A stretch of 64,000 nt of DNA, from assembly GCA_047947115.1 (NCBI GenBank), contig CP170459.1, positions 5,472,001-5,536,000 on the forward strand. Reading direction: 5' to 3'. Positions 33,151 to 44,760 of this stretch are shown in pieces (within the stretch, counting starts at the first letter, position 1; each line of letters begins with the position of its first letter). Source of the stretch: Verrucomicrobiota bacterium. Its GTDB lineage: Bacteria; Verrucomicrobiota; Verrucomicrobiia; Limisphaerales; AAA164-E04. A program made the translations under genes and the position numbers. The notes below the pieces were generated by a model, which worked only from the letters and a program-made list of their open reading frames with translations, was not told the DNA's origin and did no database searches.

Positions 33151-33375
33151 AGAAAAAAGACCTCAAATAGCCCTTTATTTTAACCGCACCACCGCGAGAG
33201 CGGGATCTGCGAAATTAAACAGATGATCGCAGATTCTTAATACTTTAGAACATCAGTTCGACTTGGGATCTGGGAGATGAACCATTGATTTCAGCAAATA
33301 CGTAAACCATGATGCATAGGGAAAGAAAAAAATATCTGCGATCATCTGCTGAATCTCGCAGATCCCGCTACCGCG

Positions 33376-34888
33376 CATGCGCGTCAGGATAAAAATGATT
33401 ATTTTTAACGATAAAGCTGTATTTTATGTACAGTTTGCTTTCTACTTTTCCGAATGACTCTCCAACAAATCCTTGTCAGACAATATCATCTTCAGATCTT
33501 CAACACACAACAAGACCTCAACCCAAATGTTTGACTTTACTCCCAGATTCACAAGGGGTTTCCCTGCCTCATGAATGGCACCGATGTGCCCAAACATTAA
33601 CCGGTTGGTTCGCTGATTTCGATTTCCAGACACTTGCTCGCGCCACCGGCTTTGTCCTGCGAACTCCGCGAAAAATAATGCCCGAATTTTTTCTACAAGC
33701 GACTATTCTATTGGTTTGCCAAGGCACCGCAAGTTTGAGTCGATGGGCGACTTTGTTGGGAATTTTGAGCAATAATACTATTGCCAAACAGTCATTGTGG
33801 GAACGAATGAACCAGGGCGCTGTGAATTATATTCAATGCATCCTGGCGCTAGTATTAAGCGCCAAATCCAAAGACAATGGCCGCAACGTCCCAAACAAGT
33901 TCAATCGATTTCCACGAATCCTTGTTCATGATAGCACGACCATCAAAGTAAATTCGAAACTGGCGGCTGCTTTTCCCGGTTCGGCTAACCAAAGTGGTTC
34001 CAAAATTGCATCGCTGAAAATACAAGCCATTCAGGATATACAAAATCAACAATTCCTCTACTTCGGGATAAGTGGATTTAGACGTAACGACCAAACCGCA
34101 ACTTATGATATTTTGAAAGTCATACGTAAGGGGGACTTAATACTCCGTGACTTGGGCTATTTCGTGATAGAATCATTCCAACAGATAGCAAACGCTGGAG
34201 CCTATTATTTGAGTCGAATCCGATTGGATATCGAAGTGAGGGACCCAGCCACAGGAGAAAAAATCGATTTACTCAAAAAACTGAAACGATTAGGAAATTT
34301 GGACTTTGATGTTTTGCTCTCAGATAAGCAGTTACCCGTGCGATTGGTGGCCATCAAACTTCCCGATGAGATCGCGGCAGAACGGCGACGCAAAGCCAAG
34401 AGCAATCGTGATAAAAGGCGAAAGCCCAATGCCCAAAGGTTGGAGTTGCTTGGTTGGGCGATATTCACAACCAATGTTCCCCAGAACGAATGCACAGCAA
34501 AAGAAGTGGCAAAGATCTACGGTTTGCGCTGGCGGATAGAAACCATTTTTAAGGCATGGAAAAGCCATTTTCGTATCACCGAGGTTCCTGACGGTTCTGC
34601 AGAGCAACTCCGGATAGTGGTTTGTGCACGACTCATTTTTATTACCGTTCTTACAAACTTGATAGAGCGTGACTGGCTTGCCCCGGGGCAGACTTGCAAC
34701 GCGGCGCATTTGAGCATGTTGAAAGTGGCTGCTCTACTGGGAGATTACTTTTTGGCTCTGTGTTTTGAAGCGTGGAATGTACAAGTCAGCGATGCTATCC
34801 CTATACAAATGAGATACCAATGCAAATATGACAAACGATCTCGTCAAAACTATGAACAAAACCTCCTGGCTTTATCCTGACGCGCATG
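33376..34888 (+). mobile_element. Complete IS4-family insertion sequence (1513 bp)
   Basis: 18-bp TIRs CATGCGCGTCAGGATAAA / TTTATCCTGACGCGCATG; 10-bp target duplication CGCTACCGCG at 33366-33375 and 34889-34898. Confidence 0.95.
33426..34880 (+). CDS. IS4-family DDE transposase
   Basis: LVHDSTTI, ILRDLGYF, YGLRWRIETIFKAWK (YREK signature); stop codon lies in the right TIR. Confidence 0.95.
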   Translation: MYSLLSTFPNDSPTNPCQTISSSDLQHTTRPQPKCLTLLPDSQGVSLPHEWHRCAQTLTGWFADFDFQTLARATGFVLRTPRKIMPEFFLQATILLVCQGTASLSRWATLLGILSNNTIAKQSLWERMNQGAVNYIQCILALVLSAKSKDNGRNVPNKFNRFPRILVHDSTTIKVNSKLAAAFPGSANQSGSKIASLKIQAIQDIQNQQFLYFGISGFRRNDQTATYDILKVIRKGDLILRDLGYFVIESFQQIANAGAYYLSRIRLDIEVRDPATGEKIDLLKKLKRLGNLDFDVLLSDKQLPVRLVAIKLPDEIAAERRRKAKSNRDKRRKPNAQRLELLGWAIFTTNVPQNECTAKEVAKIYGLRWRIETIFKAWKSHFRITEVPDGSAEQLRIVVCARLIFITVLTNLIERDWLAPGQTCNAAHLSMLKVAALLGDYFLALCFEAWNVQVSDAIPIQMRYQCKYDKRSRQNYEQNLLALS

Positions 34889-34921
34889 CGCTACCGCGGC
34901 GGTGCGGTTAGAAGAAAAGAA

Positions 34922-34998
<77 letters not shown>

Positions 34999-36257: not shown

Positions 36258-36869
36258 ATGCACATAATTAATAAATTCGGACTCATGGTCATACTTGGGA
36301 TCACTTTCATTTGGAGCACACGTGCTCAAATGGTTCCGTTACCAACCATTTCTTATCCATATCTGTCATGGTGCAGTTACTGGTATAAAACAACATACTA
36401 TCCCACTACTGGACCGTCGTTTTATGATTCTCTTTATACTCGGGCTAATCAGTCATTAAGCGGTACTACTCCCAGCACCTATTCACGGTTTGATAATAAC
36501 GGGAATGTTTCCATTACCTATGGTGGTGGATTTGTGCCTACCGTTAACAATTTTAATTGCACCTATGGACTTGGTACAAACCAGGTTTCAAATCACCGGG
36601 AAACGGCTGAATTCAGTTCTGATTATGTTGTTCCCGGCGCGTTTCCCGGGACAGCGTTCCCTGAACTTAATGTGCAGGTAATTCAAGTGGATTATTATGG
36701 GAACACCGTAGGTGGTAATTGGATGGAGCAAGATACGCTATCCGGCCTGGCTCCAGGATCATCCGGGACATTATCGGTACGTCCTCCATACATGACAAAA
36801 ACTACCTTTTACGCCTCCGGTGGACTGTATTACTTGGATGACGATGAGGATGAGGGCTGGAGCTTTTAA
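36258..36869 (+). CDS. Secreted hypothetical protein (cassette 1 lead protein), S/T/Y/G/N-rich with acidic C-terminus
   Basis: Signal peptide ending ...STRA|QMVPLPTISYP; ends LYYLDDDEDEGWSF; AT-rich DNA. Confidence 0.8.
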   Translation: MHIINKFGLMVILGITFIWSTRAQMVPLPTISYPYLSWCSYWYKTTYYPTTGPSFYDSLYTRANQSLSGTTPSTYSRFDNNGNVSITYGGGFVPTVNNFNCTYGLGTNQVSNHRETAEFSSDYVVPGAFPGTAFPELNVQVIQVDYYGNTVGGNWMEQDTLSGLAPGSSGTLSVRPPYMTKTTFYASGGLYYLDDDEDEGWSF

Positions 36870-36954: not shown

Positions 36955-37815
36955 ATGAATAGACCTTTAAAAATTTGGAAAGGCACTGCAATCATTATTG
37001 CAACCAGTCTATTTGTCTGTTACCTCCTGAACAAGGATACCAGTCATAATAAAAGGCAAACATTATTGAAGTATAAGGATTCAACACCAAAGATCCATTC
37101 ACCCACTGCTACGAGCAGTGACGATATTCCTGACCATATAAGCACCACCAACACGACGATTTCGGACCATCAAGCTTCAGAGGCCTTGCAATCTAGAAAT
37201 CAACTTTTAGCAACGTATCCAGATCTTTACTACAACCCTACAAATCAGTCCCGAACGTATCTGGCCAACCTAAACAGGCATTACTCCATTGCACCATTTG
37301 TCCATAGTCCTTTGAAGGGCTATGAATCCATGCAAACATTGATGCATATGTTGTTAGAGAACGGATATGATGTAAAATATTGGGGAGCAGCTGTAAACAT
37401 GCTTAAGCTATACCATAAATCCATTGATATCCGGCGGAGTCAACTTCGGGATTTGGGATTGCCAGCTGATGATATACAAGAGCAACTCGACGAATTTATT
37501 GAAACCGATAGAAGGTTACAATCGATTAAAGACGGGTTTACCTTTACCACTGGCATACGTAACAAGGCATTACTTTCAGACATATTCAATTTGGAGTTTC
37601 CTGCAGCGGGACTGGAAGAAAGTTTGGCTGATCCAACCCTTACCATTCTTGGAGACAGGTTGTTGACCGACTCAGATTGGCTGACACCAGAATTTCAGGA
37701 ATCACAAAAAAAGTATTCCGGATTGCCCAAACGCCCCACACAGCCTGGCATGCAGTTCTTAAAGCCCGGTTCAGAAAAAGATACTCAGCGGTTATTGGAT
37801 CACGATGCACAATAA
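36955..37815 (+). CDS. Membrane-anchored hypothetical protein, cassette paralog P1
   Basis: N-terminal TM helix; YYNP...RH...HSP...GYD...TGIRNKAL..IFNL...GDRLLTDSDW. Confidence 0.8.
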   Translation: MNRPLKIWKGTAIIIATSLFVCYLLNKDTSHNKRQTLLKYKDSTPKIHSPTATSSDDIPDHISTTNTTISDHQASEALQSRNQLLATYPDLYYNPTNQSRTYLANLNRHYSIAPFVHSPLKGYESMQTLMHMLLENGYDVKYWGAAVNMLKLYHKSIDIRRSQLRDLGLPADDIQEQLDEFIETDRRLQSIKDGFTFTTGIRNKALLSDIFNLEFPAAGLEESLADPTLTILGDRLLTDSDWLTPEFQESQKKYSGLPKRPTQPGMQFLKPGSEKDTQRLLDHDAQ

Positions 37816-38503
37816 CAACACAACAGGCACCATAGCCATCATGTGCACAGCAATCATTTTGTTGGTTGGATATTTGGTATTACATCAGCGTCATATTCCC
37901 GTTGAGCAGAAAGCCGTACCGGCACCAGGAGCGGCCGCTCCCTCCAGTCACCCTCCTCAGTCACATGCTATTACTGGCAACGTAATGGAAATCACAAAAT
38001 CAAGAGAGGCACTAAATACATGGCGACTTGAACATCCAGATGCATTCTATAACCCGGGCAATAGCAGTGAGGAGTATGGGAGAAACTATCTGAGACATAA
38101 CCAAATTGCACAGTACTACTATTCCCCAATACGTGATCATCCAGAAATGCAGAAGTTATTAAACCTCATCAAACAGCACGGATATGACATCATGGACTGG
38201 GTTAACATAGTTGTGATACTTACCGATTACCACAGGCCTGTGGCGTTAATTCGGAATAAGCTTATTGAAGCAGGATTTCATGAAGATGAGATCGAGTTAC
38301 AAATAGCAGAACCGCGACAGATGCAGGAGCAGAGAATCGACATGTACAAGGTAGAAATACGCCAGTTAACAGGAATACAGGATGAAGGATTTTTGGATAC
38401 CATCTTTAACTTGGCGATGCCGTTGGATGTAACCAAACCTACAATGCTCGGAAGAAAAACACTTCATCCCGGAGATGCATTCTTGACGGATACTGATTGG
38501 TGA
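37805..38503 (+). CDS. Membrane-anchored hypothetical protein, cassette paralog P2
   Basis: N-terminal TM helix; FYNP...RH...YYSPIR...GYD...TGIQDEGFL..IFNL...PGDAFLTDTDW. Confidence 0.8.
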   Translation: MHNNNTTGTIAIMCTAIILLVGYLVLHQRHIPVEQKAVPAPGAAAPSSHPPQSHAITGNVMEITKSREALNTWRLEHPDAFYNPGNSSEEYGRNYLRHNQIAQYYYSPIRDHPEMQKLLNLIKQHGYDIMDWVNIVVILTDYHRPVALIRNKLIEAGFHEDEIELQIAEPRQMQEQRIDMYKVEIRQLTGIQDEGFLDTIFNLAMPLDVTKPTMLGRKTLHPGDAFLTDTDW

Positions 38504-38798
38504 CGGGTGGGGTGCAGATGCAAAGTCGGAGCAGGATGCCGGAATGATCAATTTGGGAGCGGATTTTAGGATGCCCTGGCTGCAACAGACGGACAACGGC
38601 CACGGTTCATGCCGGTAGAGAGGTTCTTCTGAAACTCGAAACCGATCCGGACCAGACTGTCTTTCAAGGTATTGCAACCCAGCCTGTCAATTGACTGAAT
38701 TCGATACTGGAGTAGTTTTCGTCCTCTCATTAAGGCATTCAGACACGAATAGGGAGAGAGTCTGGTAAGAGCAGCATTTGAACTTCAGGGAGGATCGT

Positions 38799-39866
38799 TT
38801 ACTCCCAAACTTCTTTGAGGATCTTGCCTGGTCCTTGACCGGATAACAGATCGATGATTTTGTCGGCGGGTATGGATACGGTGAAGCTGCCTTCCGCATA
38901 GGAGGCAACAGCGTACGGGGCGAAGTGGATCGACAGCTTGGTTTCATCAAAGGTGAATGCGTACATCTGCCCAAAGTTCAGGAATGTCAGTGAGCCTTTG
39001 ACAACCTGCGATGCTCCCTGTGATGAAAGTGACTCGATGCACAGATCGCTCAATGCTTGTTCTGCTGGCGAAGCTGGATCGAATAAATCTTCCAGCCTGA
39101 AAACGTGTTGATTGTTGCCGGCTCTGTAAGCATTGACTGGTTTGTAGACAAGATTGCCATGGGCACCACCTGTATACTCATGATACATGCCCTGAAGGCT
39201 CAACAGGTTCTTGTTTTGGAAACTCTTGGTGAAAGTCCAATGCTGCCACCACATGTTGGGTGCTGTCGGGTGTCTGAAGAACTGCCAAGCTTCCTTATAA
39301 GCTCCCTTGAAAAACGTGGATCGGGCACTTCCCGGGATCAGGATAAGTATCTTGGATATCACCGATTCCTGCCAAGGATCGAGATCGGACATGGGTTCCA
39401 ATCTTATTCGCAGTGTTTTCTTTAATCCGCGTTTTCCGAAAAGGAATCCACTTGAAACACTCATTTCTTCATAGCGAGTGACTGTTGACAGTTAAATTTT
39501 TTCGGGATCCGTTCCTGGTGCAATAGTCCAAAGACCGTCGGCTGGAACCTTGTCAATGCCATCAAGCCAAGTCAAAAGCCCTTGAGTGTTTTCAGCTGTG
39601 GTTCGGAACGGCGAGACCTGCCAGGTATTCTCTTTCTTTGAATCATCCTGATTCACATGCCAGGAGCGGGTTCCATCGCTTAGGGACAAGGTGCCATATC
39701 CACGGTCTTCATCCCATTGCAGGTCGATGGGGCCCAGTTCGGTCGTTCCCTGATACCGGACCAGAGAGCCTGGATGGAATGATGGAAACACCACGGATTT
39801 GATCGCCCACGCGGCAAGCAAGACCACTGCGACCGACAGAAGGATAACAAGCTTTCGTTTGTTCAT
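38799..39866 (-). pseudogene. DUF3298/RsiV-like membrane-anchored protein split by an in-frame TAA
   Basis: ORFs 39492-39866 and 38799-39464 are in one frame (...EKI*LSTVTRYEEMSVS...); EYTGGAHGN, LEDLF, FAPYAVASYAEG motifs. Confidence 0.75.
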
Positions 39867-39942
39867 TTTAAAATCGCAGAATTTTTAAGACAGGATGAAT
39901 TCACCTCAGAAATCTCCTTCGTGAGGAAGGGCCAGCTAACAT

Positions 39943-40095
39943 TTAGAAAGCAGTTGCTCTACTCAAATGAGCCACGGACGCTACCGACGGAGACCATTCA
40001 AAAACCATTCCAACCTCATTTCAATTCAAAAGATCAATGCTCACGCCTGTCTCGCCAACCCGGGGGACTGAGACGCGGAGGCCCAGAGATTTTTC
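39943..40095 (-). repeat. Decayed duplicate of the tRNA-Arg 5' half plus ~110 bp of its upstream region (copy of 34960-35110)
   Basis: TTAGAA(A/G)GCAGTTGCTCTA...CATTCAAAAACCATTCCAACC...TCACGCCTGTCTCGCCAACCCGG.GGACTGAGACG. Confidence 0.9.
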
Positions 40096-40108
40096 AGACG
40101 AAATAATC

Positions 40109-40390
40109 GTAGGGTCGAGTGCCACCTCGAACCCAAATTTCACCCTCAGGTTGCCCATCACCAAAGGGAATGGAACGTGGACAAACCATTGTTCATCGGT
40201 TGACTGTGCCATGTCCATAGAATCCGGATTGATTTTCCGATGCACCGAGGATTGAAGTGGGTTCGAGACGGCGCTCGCCCCTCCAGGAGGGAACCACCAC
40301 TAAAACCCCAGAGGGGTGAACCATCACCAGCCCAGTGCATCGCGCTGGGTTAATGGCCCCAAATTTACAAAGCCCTGAAGGGGCGCACGA
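40109..40390. repeat. Cluster of short REP-like palindromes
   Basis: GTAGGGTCGAG-TGCCAC-CTCGAACCC; CCCCAGAGGGG...CCCAGTGCATCGCGCTGGG...GCCCTGAAGGGGC. Confidence 0.5.
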
Positions 40391-40698
40391 GACATTCCCC
40401 TTCAAATAGCAGACCCCACTTCCACCAAAATCCATCTCGAAGATCCGGATTACCCGGCGACTGTTAATTTCTCAGATCCAGTTTTATGAAGGCTGCTCAT
40501 CCAAGAAAACTACCGTCATCTTAGCTCAATTTGCGACATGTCATCTTAAAAACCGACACCCGACTACAAAATCATACAAACTATGTCGCAATTTCGTTTC
40601 AAGTTCTTATTGTTTAGTTTGCACTTGTATTTTATTTTTTAACTTATAAGTTAAATAGCAAAAATCATCATTTCCAACTTTCATTTTACCATACCGGC

Positions 40699-41469
40699 AT
40701 GAAATACAGCATATCACTGTTCTTTGCTCTCACCTTTGTCCCAGTGACACAAGGTTTGACACAAACCGTAGATCCACTCCCCAACGTGTCCCTCCCCATG
40801 GGGCAAATAAAAAAAATGGGGGCGGATTTTATTAAGGACATCACCGGGAAAGCCGTGGACATGTTTGCGGATTACCTGATCGACTACTCCCACGCCAGCT
40901 TTCAACTCGAACGTGCCTCCTGGCGGGAAGGCTTTTCCCACCGATATGCACAGATTGATAACCAAACTTTCCGACGAGTTGATTGGGCGAACGCTACAAG
41001 GGCCAGCTATCTGACAGAGAGAATCAGAATCCATTTAGAAACAGGTGTAAAAAAAGCTTTACCTCAAACGACAACTGCTTTCTCTGACCACGAAGAAGCC
41101 AACCGTTATTGGCGCTCTTACATAACAGTTAACGAAAAGTTGGAGCGTGAAAAAGCCTGGATCATGAAGATGCATCATCGCTTACGAAACACCTATTACA
41201 AAGGCGCAACATTCCCCAGCAAACAAATGACTGGCCCACTTTACCCCAGAATTTACTGTCGTGTTACAACGCTTCCCAATCTTGAAATCAATGGTTCCAA
41301 CAGAGGATTCCAATCAGGATATGCACGGGGATACAAATCTGTTTACGTGCCCCTGAATGGCGTATCGAGTGATTTCGAACTTCTCAGCCGTGCTAATTCC
41401 AGGCTCGATTGCGATCACACGACCGATTTATTTGTCCCGGGAGAAGATGACAACGGTATGAATACCTAG
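40699..41469 (+). CDS. Secreted hypothetical protein (cassette 2 lead protein) with acidic C-terminus
   Basis: Signal peptide then TVDPLPNVSLP; ends DLFVPGEDDNGMNT. Confidence 0.8.
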   Translation: MKYSISLFFALTFVPVTQGLTQTVDPLPNVSLPMGQIKKMGADFIKDITGKAVDMFADYLIDYSHASFQLERASWREGFSHRYAQIDNQTFRRVDWANATRASYLTERIRIHLETGVKKALPQTTTAFSDHEEANRYWRSYITVNEKLEREKAWIMKMHHRLRNTYYKGATFPSKQMTGPLYPRIYCRVTTLPNLEINGSNRGFQSGYARGYKSVYVPLNGVSSDFELLSRANSRLDCDHTTDLFVPGEDDNGMNT

Positions 41470-41471
41470 GC

Positions 41472-42191
41472 ATGTCCATGAAGCAGCCCCAGATACCGAC
41501 AAAAATCCACAAACCTCTCAGTCTGATACATGTGATGATCTCGACTGGGCTGGTCGTATGGATACTACTGCTGGGTTTTCGTATCATCAGGAAACAAGTT
41601 CCTTCCGTTGAAGCTGCTGACGAAAAGGAATCCACTGCCATCGTTCATCGTGCAACAGCCGAAAGCAATTCCGGCACTCAAGCTGAATCCTTCTTTCAGC
41701 AAATCAAATCCGGCTTGCAACAACCCCGCCTGTTTCCCTTTAAGCCCGAGTTGTCGGGGGAAACATACGACCCGGAAATCCCTTTGGATGCCCCTGCGGT
41801 GGAACGGCTGAAGCGTCATGTGATGCTTCGCAATTTCTACACCTCCCCTGCAAGACTGACTGCTGAGTTCAAGGCATTGAGTGATCTCCTCGCAGATCAT
41901 GGATTGGAGTTGGATCCGATTCTAATAAGAAATCTTTACACCTGTTTGGAATGGATCGAATCCAACAGGAACTTGCCAAAGGAGAACCCGGAACTGGTCG
42001 CCCATCAAATCCGCCATGAACTGGATCAAATGACCGCAGATGACACGGCTTATGCTGTTGAGACAGCCAAAAACCTATTGCCTGTCGAAGACGCATTATT
42101 CTGGTCTGCGTTTTTTGAGATTCGCCCCAAAGTCCCATTTCCTGCTCCGGATACCCGAGTAGAACCTGGCGAATACCTGTTGATCCGATAA
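41472..42191 (+). CDS. Membrane-anchored hypothetical protein, cassette paralog P3
   Basis: TM helix; TYDPE...LKRHVMLRNFYTSPARL...VEDALF...RVEPGEYLL. Confidence 0.82.
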   Translation: MSMKQPQIPTKIHKPLSLIHVMISTGLVVWILLLGFRIIRKQVPSVEAADEKESTAIVHRATAESNSGTQAESFFQQIKSGLQQPRLFPFKPELSGETYDPEIPLDAPAVERLKRHVMLRNFYTSPARLTAEFKALSDLLADHGLELDPILIRNLYTCLEWIESNRNLPKENPELVAHQIRHELDQMTADDTAYAVETAKNLLPVEDALFWSAFFEIRPKVPFPAPDTRVEPGEYLLIR

Positions 42192-42229
42192 GTCGACATG
42201 AAGGTTTCATCCAACAATCAATCACCTCC

Positions 42230-42940
42230 ATGACCACCCAACCAACAGGTAGCAAAGGGAATTTTGCGACAACAAGCCTCATGGTCCTGCTGGGGCTTAC
42301 AAACGTCCTGGTAGCCGTGATGACGTTTCGCGGTGAATCCCAGGCGCTTCCAAAAAGATCCGACCAGAACCCCAATGTTCAATCAACCACTACAGAAACG
42401 AACCCCCAGCTTTCCAATACGATGACGCAGGCGGAATCGCTGCTTCAAACGGTCAAAGCAGGCCTCCAGCAACCCCGCCAATTCCCCTTTACGCCGGAGT
42501 GGTCTGAGGAAACGTATGATCCGGAAACTACGTTGGACAAGGAGACTTTGATAAAACTGAAGCGACACGTAATGCTCCGGAATTTCTATTCATCCAATGC
42601 CCGATTGACTCCGGCATTCAGACAGCTGATTGGACTGTTGTCGGAATGGGGAATTGAGTCCGACCCAATCCTCGTTCAGCAACTTTTCGGACCTCTTCGC
42701 GGTATGGAAATGCATCGTGAAGGGACAAGGGAAAATCCGGAGCTTGTAGAGCCAAGCATTAAAAAGGAGCTGCAAGAAATGCTTACCACGGACAAAGCAT
42801 ACTTTTCCCAGGTTGTTAAGGAGTTGTTGAACATAGAAGACCCAGCCTTCATCACCGCCCTTCTCAAACTGCGGCCCAAGGAAGGATTCGGGATGCCTGA
42901 CACCCGCATCGAACCCGGCGAACGTTTACTGATACAATGA
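42230..42940 (+). CDS. Membrane-anchored hypothetical protein, cassette paralog P4 (close paralog of P3)
   Basis: TM helix; TYDPE...LKRHVMLRNFYSSNARL...NIEDPAF...RIEPGERLL. Confidence 0.82.
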   Translation: MTTQPTGSKGNFATTSLMVLLGLTNVLVAVMTFRGESQALPKRSDQNPNVQSTTTETNPQLSNTMTQAESLLQTVKAGLQQPRQFPFTPEWSEETYDPETTLDKETLIKLKRHVMLRNFYSSNARLTPAFRQLIGLLSEWGIESDPILVQQLFGPLRGMEMHREGTRENPELVEPSIKKELQEMLTTDKAYFSQVVKELLNIEDPAFITALLKLRPKEGFGMPDTRIEPGERLLIQ

Positions 42941-43677
42941 AAACTCAATCCTGGATCATCGCAGGTCTTTGCATCACATTGGCGTTGCTGGTGTGGAAGA
43001 ATCAGAGCATGGATCAAACGCGTTCCATTTCAGCTGAGAACGAGCAACCAGCCGTGCCACCTGAAAGGGACGCACCCCCAGTATTATCAGAGACAAACCA
43101 ACTGGACGCCTCCCCGCTTTCGGAACCTGGTGACCATGCGCTGGACGCCATTTATGGTCATTGGACTCCTCCCGAGGAGGAAAAGTATGTGGCGAATCCC
43201 GGTGGCCCGTTGGATGAGGGGTTCGAGTGGACGGATGAATACTACGATCCGGAGCGTATCGATGAACCCGGTTACCGGGACATGGTCATATCGGCCATCT
43301 ATGCAAAGCATTATTATGAATCACCCGAAAGAAAGCTGCCTCCCTTTCAGCAATCCGCTGCGTTACTCGAACGATGGAATATCGAACCTACCATGGATCA
43401 TACGGTGCTGATCCATGACGCCGCCCACGAATGGCACATGCATCAGGCATTTGCCGATCAGGATTCCGGACCGGCAGCCGGACCGGACGGCAAGAAAATG
43501 GCCGCCTTCAAAATGTATTTTCACCGCGAAAACATTACAAGCCGATTGAACCACTTCCTGGGCATCAAGGACAAAGCCTTCTTCGAAGAATTGATCGAGA
43601 TCAAGCCGGAGAGCGGCATCCTCAAACCTCTGCTGATCATCAACCCGGGCGACCGACTCATGAGGCAAACGGATTAA
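42937..43677 (+). CDS. Membrane-anchored hypothetical protein, cassette paralog P5
   Basis: TM helix; YYDPE...KHYYESPERK...LGIKDKAFFEELIEIKP...INPGDRLM; ATGA overlap with P4. Confidence 0.82.
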   Translation: MKTQSWIIAGLCITLALLVWKNQSMDQTRSISAENEQPAVPPERDAPPVLSETNQLDASPLSEPGDHALDAIYGHWTPPEEEKYVANPGGPLDEGFEWTDEYYDPERIDEPGYRDMVISAIYAKHYYESPERKLPPFQQSAALLERWNIEPTMDHTVLIHDAAHEWHMHQAFADQDSGPAAGPDGKKMAAFKMYFHRENITSRLNHFLGIKDKAFFEELIEIKPESGILKPLLIINPGDRLMRQTD

Positions 43678-44339: not shown

Positions 44340-44492
44340 AAATCCAGCATCCATTTCCTAAAACCGGAGTGACGACTACCGGGGGCAAATTCTCCATTAA
44401 AGGAGACGGGGTCCAGTGACGTAAAAGGTCGCCCACGCACTTTCCTGGAGACTCGATTCAATGATCAAGTTGTCGGTAAGGCGGCAAGCACT

Positions 44493-44756
44493 CCACGTTC
44501 TTGGGAACGCGGCTACAGGACACGTTCTTGGGAACGCGGCTACAGGACACGTTTTTGGGAAACGCGGCTACGGGCCACGTTCTTGGGAAACGCGGTTACG
44601 GGCCACGTTTTGGGAAACGCGGCTACGGGCCACGTTCTTGGGAACGCGGTTACGGGCCACGTTTTGGGAACGCGGTTACGGGCCACGTTCTTGGGAAACG
44701 CGGTTACGGGCCACGTTCTTGGGAACGCGGCTACAGTTTTTGGGAACAAGGTTACG
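44493..44756. repeat. Tandem array of 9 full plus 1 degenerate 26-28 bp palindromic units (REP-like)
   Basis: Unit CACGTT(C)TTGGGAA(A)CGCGG(C/T)TAC(A/G)GG(A/C); minus strand reads GTA(G/A)CCGCGTTCCCAAGAACGTG; no spacers. Confidence 0.9.
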
Positions 44757-44760
44757 GTAG

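Follow-up and report, generated by a model that had tools for sequence, protein, structure and literature searches.

In polymorphic toxin-immunity loci (contact-dependent inhibition, CDI, with cdiA-CT/cdiI; Rhs; staphylococcal type VII secretion, T7SS, with esaG and tsaI; streptococcal tipC), the gene of a secreted protein is followed by that of its partner, non-identical partner genes stand in strings, and the partner outlives the secreted gene. Type II secretion chaperones (the lipase-specific foldases Lif/LipB/LipH and the Acinetobacter chaperone CpaB) are encoded beside a signal-peptide client, and consist of one N-terminal membrane helix, a variable linker and a soluble domain, which in Lif is helical. 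In the Pam pilus of Candidatus Mycosynbacter amalyticus, as described in the available part of PMC13278184, secreted immunoglobulin (Ig)-like subunits (the pilins PamA/B) and two membrane-anchored helpers (the chaperones PamC/D) are encoded in one operon. Here we describe a module comparable to these, in which a gene for a signal-peptide protein (S) is followed by genes for membrane-anchored proteins (P). The module was studied in a window of 64,000 nucleotides (the whole stretch of DNA that was analysed) from a Verrucomicrobiota bacterium of the order Limisphaerales (assembly GCA_047947115.1, contig CP170459.1, positions 5,472,001 to 5,536,000). A sequence-only reading of the window had singled out five P genes, P1 to P5, as a protein family; these genes are the second half of an S-then-P module, the first half of which that reading overlooked. 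The S/P module is real, lineage-restricted and highly amplified, and is made of two unnamed families without a fold match.

A module of secreted S and anchored P

Two S/P cassettes, all genes of which lie on the forward strand (+), are present in the window. Cassette 1 begins with S1 (203 amino acids; 36258..36869), followed by P1 (286 amino acids; 36955-37815), an N-anchored helical member of the family, and P2 (232 amino acids; 37805-38503), which falls in one subclade with P1. Cassette 2 is headed by S2 (256 amino acids; 40699-41469), which has an N-terminal amphipathic segment, and continues, three bases on, with P3 (239 amino acids; 41472-42191), P4 (236 amino acids; 42230-42940; its core, residues 55-236, is the modelled part) and P5 (246 amino acids; 42937-43677), a separate conserved subtype that lacks the family histidine. 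The signal peptides of S1 and S2 were read by eye.

The five-member family proposed by the sequence-only reading is borne out: all five open reading frames (ORFs) begin where that reading had placed them, are homologous above chance (by 500 shuffles and by profile), and each carries a single N-terminal hydrophobic helix and none further along. Pairwise alignment z-scores against 500 shuffles link P1 to P2 (31% identity, z 38), P3 to P4 (44%, z 84) and P4 to P5 (22%, z 23), and the two cassettes are bridged by P2-P5 (z 8.8, 0/500 shuffles), with P2-P3 at z 5.5 (1/500). P1 compares weakly with P3, P4 and P5 directly (z 2.4-3.1, 7-14/500 shuffles), and is joined to them via P2 and the family profile. 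Of the motif chain by which the family had been recognized, Y[ND]P and [PL]G[DE].[LF][LM] are found in 5/5 proteins, whereas P1 departs from the [FY].SP spacing (FVHSPLK), and the "KH" seen in P5 does not represent the family histidine, since that alignment column holds alanine in P5. TD.DW is indeed common to P1 and P2, and LKRHVMLRNFY to P3 and P4; a chain of three motifs is specific, matching 4 of the 28,429 ORFs of the genome, every one within the window. The idea that paralogs expanded within each cassette is only partly right: P5 and its counterparts from other genomes make up a clade of their own (100/97), and P1 groups with one outside relative, P2 with another.

The link between the two genes extends well beyond the window. 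Of the 74 ORFs that immediately precede P genes and are not P themselves, 55 belong to one homology component. A P gene lies directly downstream (within 450 bases) of 80/85 S ORFs, a figure that is partly circular because many loci were fetched via their P match; of 20 regions fetched mostly by their S match, 18 contain a P, one ends at a contig edge and one has no P. Seen from the other side, an S is found upstream of 76/98 heads of P runs, the other 22 having none. Similarity among S proteins is correlated with that among P proteins (Mantel rho 0.58 over 68 pairs, 0/999 permutations), and nearest neighbours agree in 36/68 pairs; joint duplication or shared descent accounts for part of this correlation. 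The order S2-P3/4-P5 is kept in loci L035, L036, L107 and L110 (two other genomes and metagenome contigs), and in G020, a genome of another genus, an S1 homolog with 31% identity is followed by a P1/P2-type gene. In a single case (L087, genome G011) the two are naturally fused, in one ORF of 787 amino acids that matches the S profile at 83-392 and the P profile at 482-707. Charge complementarity within S-P pairs is weak (rho -0.25), and complex prediction for S2 with the P4 core yielded no answer (score 0.02). We consider it likely that S and P form a functional pair.

The P family is almost entirely confined to one Limisphaerales family. An iterated profile found 10 further P ORFs, spread over four other places in the source genome (6.08 Mb), which thus has 15 P genes in total; at each of these places a signal-peptide gene lies upstream of a P. 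P matches were found in 18/21 other genomes of the same family, with a maximum of 50 in one genome (no more than 56 candidates were scored in each), and in 1/19 genomes from other families of the order. A sample of 400 genomes across the phylum (5 candidates scored per genome) yielded one genuine match, on a contig of 76 kb that also has transposase-like ORFs; the other 19 of 20 matches were rejected because they covered anchor and linker only. This contig (L093, G110:C2), assigned to a genome of another class, contains four P genes with S partners, a result of either transfer or misbinning. In a representative library, the family comprises 275 clusters at 50% identity.

Anatomy and variation of P and S

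No column is invariant among 108 P sequences, the best-conserved positions being W81, F85-P86, P89, H113 (88%), F119, R125 (82%), F130, G230 and L234. An N-terminal anchor is present in 91/106 P rows and a lipobox in none; in 82 of these rows the charge ahead of the anchor helix is net positive, which suggests that P is oriented N-in, C-out. The predicted structure of the P4 core (predicted local distance difference test, pLDDT, 91.6; predicted template modelling score, pTM, 0.81) is a helical bundle, with strands only in the run-up to YDP and at the PGERLL end; on the secondary structure of this model, the conserved ends would most simply pair as a clasp. The description of conserved ends around a variable middle holds (mean frequency of the top residue 0.49 and 0.54 in the two ends vs 0.23 in residues 160-200, a region also variable in length, 19-104 amino acids), but fold alone could account for the conserved ends, since the two would pair as beta-strands in the P4 model. 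Compared with their G001 counterpart, P3/P4 are 22-24% identical in the middle and 56-60% in the flanks; the middle of P5 is 75% identical to its counterpart, and P5 is the slowest-evolving P of the window. The check proposed for the variable middle, the ratio of nonsynonymous to synonymous substitution rates (dN/dS), did not show positive selection: dS is saturated in many comparisons, and the measurable values, 0.06-0.37, indicate purifying selection. Partner-specific recognition, the function suggested for the middle, fits the data, with the upstream secreted protein, omitted from the sequence-only reading, as the likely partner.

Neither S nor P has a significant match in Pfam, NCBIfam, PHROGs or PDB sequence profiles. 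For the P4 model, a Foldseek search returned no match at E<=0.001, and the best match of a VIA search (AFV1 ORF140; Z 7.2; root mean square deviation, rmsd, 3.5; 80 aligned) lies within the noise usual for helical bundles; in the ESM Atlas, P4 matched unnamed clusters only, all below 0.9, and one S had no match that could be used.

Composite P proteins and mixed neighbourhoods were also seen. In the array S-P-S fragment-P-PP-P of locus L002, an ORF of 778 amino acids consists of two P domains (L002:7157-9493, minus strand; G000:C1:896157-898493), and the database protein P0002 (337 amino acids) is chimeric, its front being of P3/P4 type and its back of P5 type. At L029, L031 and L101, the neighbours of P are other unnamed proteins that have a hydrophobic helix at the N terminus, perhaps in mixed partner arrays; three such proteins from these loci were scanned and had no Pfam match.

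One member of the main S family, from G001, was modelled (pLDDT 86.8, with low-confidence N-terminal helices and very long strands). The model is elongated and nearly all-beta, with a base that has weak Ig/fibronectin type III (FnIII)-like matches and an inserted domain (44-125) that varies more than the base; conservation peaks at residues 126-233. Conserved positions of S are occupied chiefly by G, W, Y, L, S and A, among which no catalytic set is evident. The best Foldseek match of the model is GP64 (E 0.006, template modelling score, TM, 0.13), followed by natterin-like proteins; the best VIA match reaches Z 3.7, and MspA Z 3.5 (rmsd 5.5, 120 aligned); a viral fold library gave no match. 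On these searches, readings of S as an aerolysin, fusogen or porin are possible but unsupported. In many members, the N-terminal segment of S is rich in Gly/Ala and either amphipathic or hydrophobic (mean hydrophobicity >0.5 in 16/57 rows).

Alignment of S2 with its relatives (15 in the database) reveals a hypervariable block, with marked differences between strains, at about residues 96-128 (40986..41083, +). In this region, which was picked after the alignment had been viewed, 16-22 of the 32 positions at residues 96-127 differ in all 13 aligned relatives; the near-identical variant P0155 differs at 17/32 residues in the block vs 3/185 elsewhere. A contig from another run (X14) skips the block's 96 bases, and the letters between are not known. 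Further along S2, dense substitutions, many of them spaced in multiples of three, were seen in two other runs (window 41204-41277), a pattern that suggests recombination within S2.

Some S genes have unusual architectures. The S proteins of L104 (L104:934-2376) and L134 (L134:643-2319) have an extra N-terminal domain, which we take to resemble pre-peptidase C-terminal (PPC) domains; the L104 protein had no Pfam match. Genus g3 S genes (L009, L011, L030, L056, L065) have leaders of 100-200 amino acids ahead of the final signal-like helix, and at L004 a transposase-like ORF (L004:5422-6687) lies between S and its P, the C-terminal end of S being altered, while the G001 counterpart is uninterrupted.

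Decay of the cassettes and the role of P

S and P are not lost equally. A script sorted 105 cassettes (5 more were set aside because of fusion or a contig edge) into 63 with both genes intact, 26 with S broken and P intact, 14 with both lost, and 2 with S intact and P broken or absent. A hand check moved L006, L041 and L091 to the intact class and L144 and L153 to the class with both broken, and left L004 (insertion-clipped) and L104 unclear, giving 19 loci with S broken and P intact vs 2 with S intact and P broken or absent. The counts are 16 vs 1 among loci from the S search, and 14 vs 1 once two likely pairs of orthologs are merged (two-sided binomial about 0.001); at L113, which is one of the two exceptions, a second P follows that is intact. 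Homopolymer phase variation is not evident, as runs near most breaks are of 3-6 bases. If either knockout abolished function equally, symmetric decay would be expected; if S is harmful without P, S should be lost before P, as observed. Orphan and tandem P genes are common, much as with immunity genes, and at L002 and L036 a full cassette is followed by a module of an S 3' fragment and an intact P.

We hypothesize, with a confidence that stops a little short of even, that P binds and neutralises a harmful secreted partner, S, in the manner of an immunity protein. S and P would both cross the inner membrane by Sec, P facing the periplasm, where the tethered P would bind S and keep it harmless; in the predicted structure, the helical bundle would be closed by the clasp of conserved ends, leaving the variable segments free to read the partner. 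Free S would be harmful, probably by the action on membranes of its N-terminal helix, which is Gly/Ala-rich or amphipathic. S may exit through a secretin channel (secretins are present in 5/5 genomes examined, and VipB, which would indicate a type VI link, in 0/5), and extra P copies may cover the S variants of neighbours. P perhaps doubles as an export chaperone for S, the two roles being compatible. The broader picture, of polymorphic antagonism in one Limisphaerales family, with a membrane-active S of new fold carrying exchangeable specificity blocks, a tethered P of new fold and up to about 50 immunity genes per genome, is possible, and we hold it more loosely still.

Several observations weigh against P as an antidote. 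The decay loci come mostly from four related genomes, and P was tested there for anchor and core only. Neither a toxin domain, a catalytic motif nor a pore-former fold was found in S, the N-terminal segment of which is clearly hydrophobic in just the 16 rows mentioned and is lacking in S1; the variation of S is internal, with no swapped C-terminal tip. The profile of the main S family does not pick up S1 or S2, whose alignment with the best-conserved stretch of that family is weak (P 0.011 and 0.004, respectively), although their membership in the family is likely on account of that alignment. In anatomy, P corresponds exactly to the type II secretion chaperones as defined in the available part of PMC4713064 (an anchor, a variable linker and a helical domain, beside a signal-peptide gene), and a toxin-antidote fusion is harder to explain than a client-chaperone fusion.

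Anatomy and fusion fit equally well or better if P is simply a membrane-anchored chaperone of the same kind as Lif or CpaB, which folds a harmless cognate S and passes it to a type II secretion system; the universal presence of secretins in the genomes examined agrees with this, as do PilB/GspE-like ATPase genes (motifs by eye) beside 2/4 other loci of the source genome. A chaperone of this kind predicts symmetric decay, however, whereas 19 vs 2 was observed (a cpaB deletion is viable, according to the accessible portion of PMC4713064), and it leaves unexplained both the 22/98 P heads without S and the occurrence of two or three divergent P with one S; the Lif motif is also missing from all 108 P sequences. 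A pure chaperone is the main rival reading, and we regard it as somewhat less likely than the antidote. Less probable again is that a variable filament, coat or channel on the surface has S as its subunit and the P proteins as its membrane-anchored assembly factors, two P subtypes acting jointly. The Ig/FnIII-like base with an inserted variable domain would suit such a subunit, the S2 hypervariable block would suit a surface exposed to phages or predators, both P3/4-type and P5-type genes are kept behind S2, and two membrane-anchored chaperones serve the Pam pilus in the accessible text of PMC13278184; yet those are beta-barrel proteins with a C-terminal anchor, P being helical with an N-terminal one, usher, tip and anchor genes do not recur in the loci, and orphan P genes would go unexplained. 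It is very improbable that P is an enzyme or small-ligand binder acting independently of S, through the pocket of His, Tyr, Ser and Arg envisaged by the sequence-only reading. The conservation of His113 and Arg125 and the intactness of orphan P genes speak for it, but there is no invariant column and no Pfam or NCBIfam enzyme match, and the tight linkage to S would be left unexplained; Ser122 is conserved in 38% and Tyr96 in 39%, and the histidine is absent from the slowly evolving P5, so that no catalytic pocket is supported.

Surroundings of the cassettes and comparison with known systems

Cassette 1 adjoins a tRNA-Arg(TCT) gene (34922..34998, -), and a degenerate copy of the 5' half of this gene and its upstream DNA lies between the cassettes (39943..40094, -), in repeats D4 (92%) and D5 (84%) at a spacing of about 4,985 bases. 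Just outside the tRNA-Arg gene, a DDE transposase (PF01609, E 2e-26; 33426-34880, +) with perfect terminal inverted repeats of 21 nucleotides (33373-33393, 34871-34891) is inserted in a palindromic element. Also between the cassettes are genes for a DUF3298/PdaC-like protein (38799-39464, -) and for a protein of 124 amino acids with an N-terminal hydrophobic helix and no library match (39492-39866, -). About ten head-to-tail copies of a unit of 27-28 nucleotides (44471-44757) occupy the gap before an FGE-sulfatase gene. A promoter scan gave a result at chance level. RNA-library contigs of low depth, which may be DNA, include portions of S1, P1, P2 and P5, as well as short pieces from S2 and P3; DNA of the window is also present in sequencing runs from marsh, estuary and seawater.

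Should P neutralise S, the module would represent a new class of toxin and a new class of immunity protein, neither with a known fold, and a system of competition that has been amplified on a massive scale in a little-known group of Verrucomicrobiota. Should P act solely as a chaperone, this would be, to our knowledge, the largest cognate client-chaperone repertoire in one genome, and the pairs would be useful for the study of secretion-substrate recognition. S-P pairs are small and defined, and hence amenable to direct tests in E. coli.

No description of the S/P family was found in the literature, as represented by an incomplete library. Compared with PamC/D, which are beta-barrel, C-anchored and FimC/PapD-like in the part of PMC13278184 at hand, P is helical (with two short strands) and N-anchored, and the host of S/P is a diderm. 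Unlike Lif, P has no Pfam match, and the foldase motif RxxFDY(F/C)L(S/T)A (given in the available excerpt of PMC7046727) is found in 0/108 P sequences, whether strict or loose; S is neither a lipase nor a protease, and P occurs in several copies per client or as an orphan. In contrast to polymorphic toxin-immunity loci, S/P gave no significant match to a toxin or immunity domain in the sequence searches and no clear one in the fold searches; its leader is of Sec type, and it lacks a link to CdiB, Rhs or VipB; the variation of S does not take the form of a C-terminal tip on a conserved N-terminal trafficking region, and dozens of S/P cassettes are dispersed in each genome. The modules of an S fragment and an intact P nevertheless resemble orphan cdiA-CT/cdiI modules (PMC3150448), strings of P genes resemble the staphylococcal esaG and tsaI arrays of non-identical partners (PMC9484751), and in its working S/P would be like the polymorphic toxin-immunity loci (PMC3150448, PMC9484751, PMC3482391), as far as the available portions of these sources describe them.

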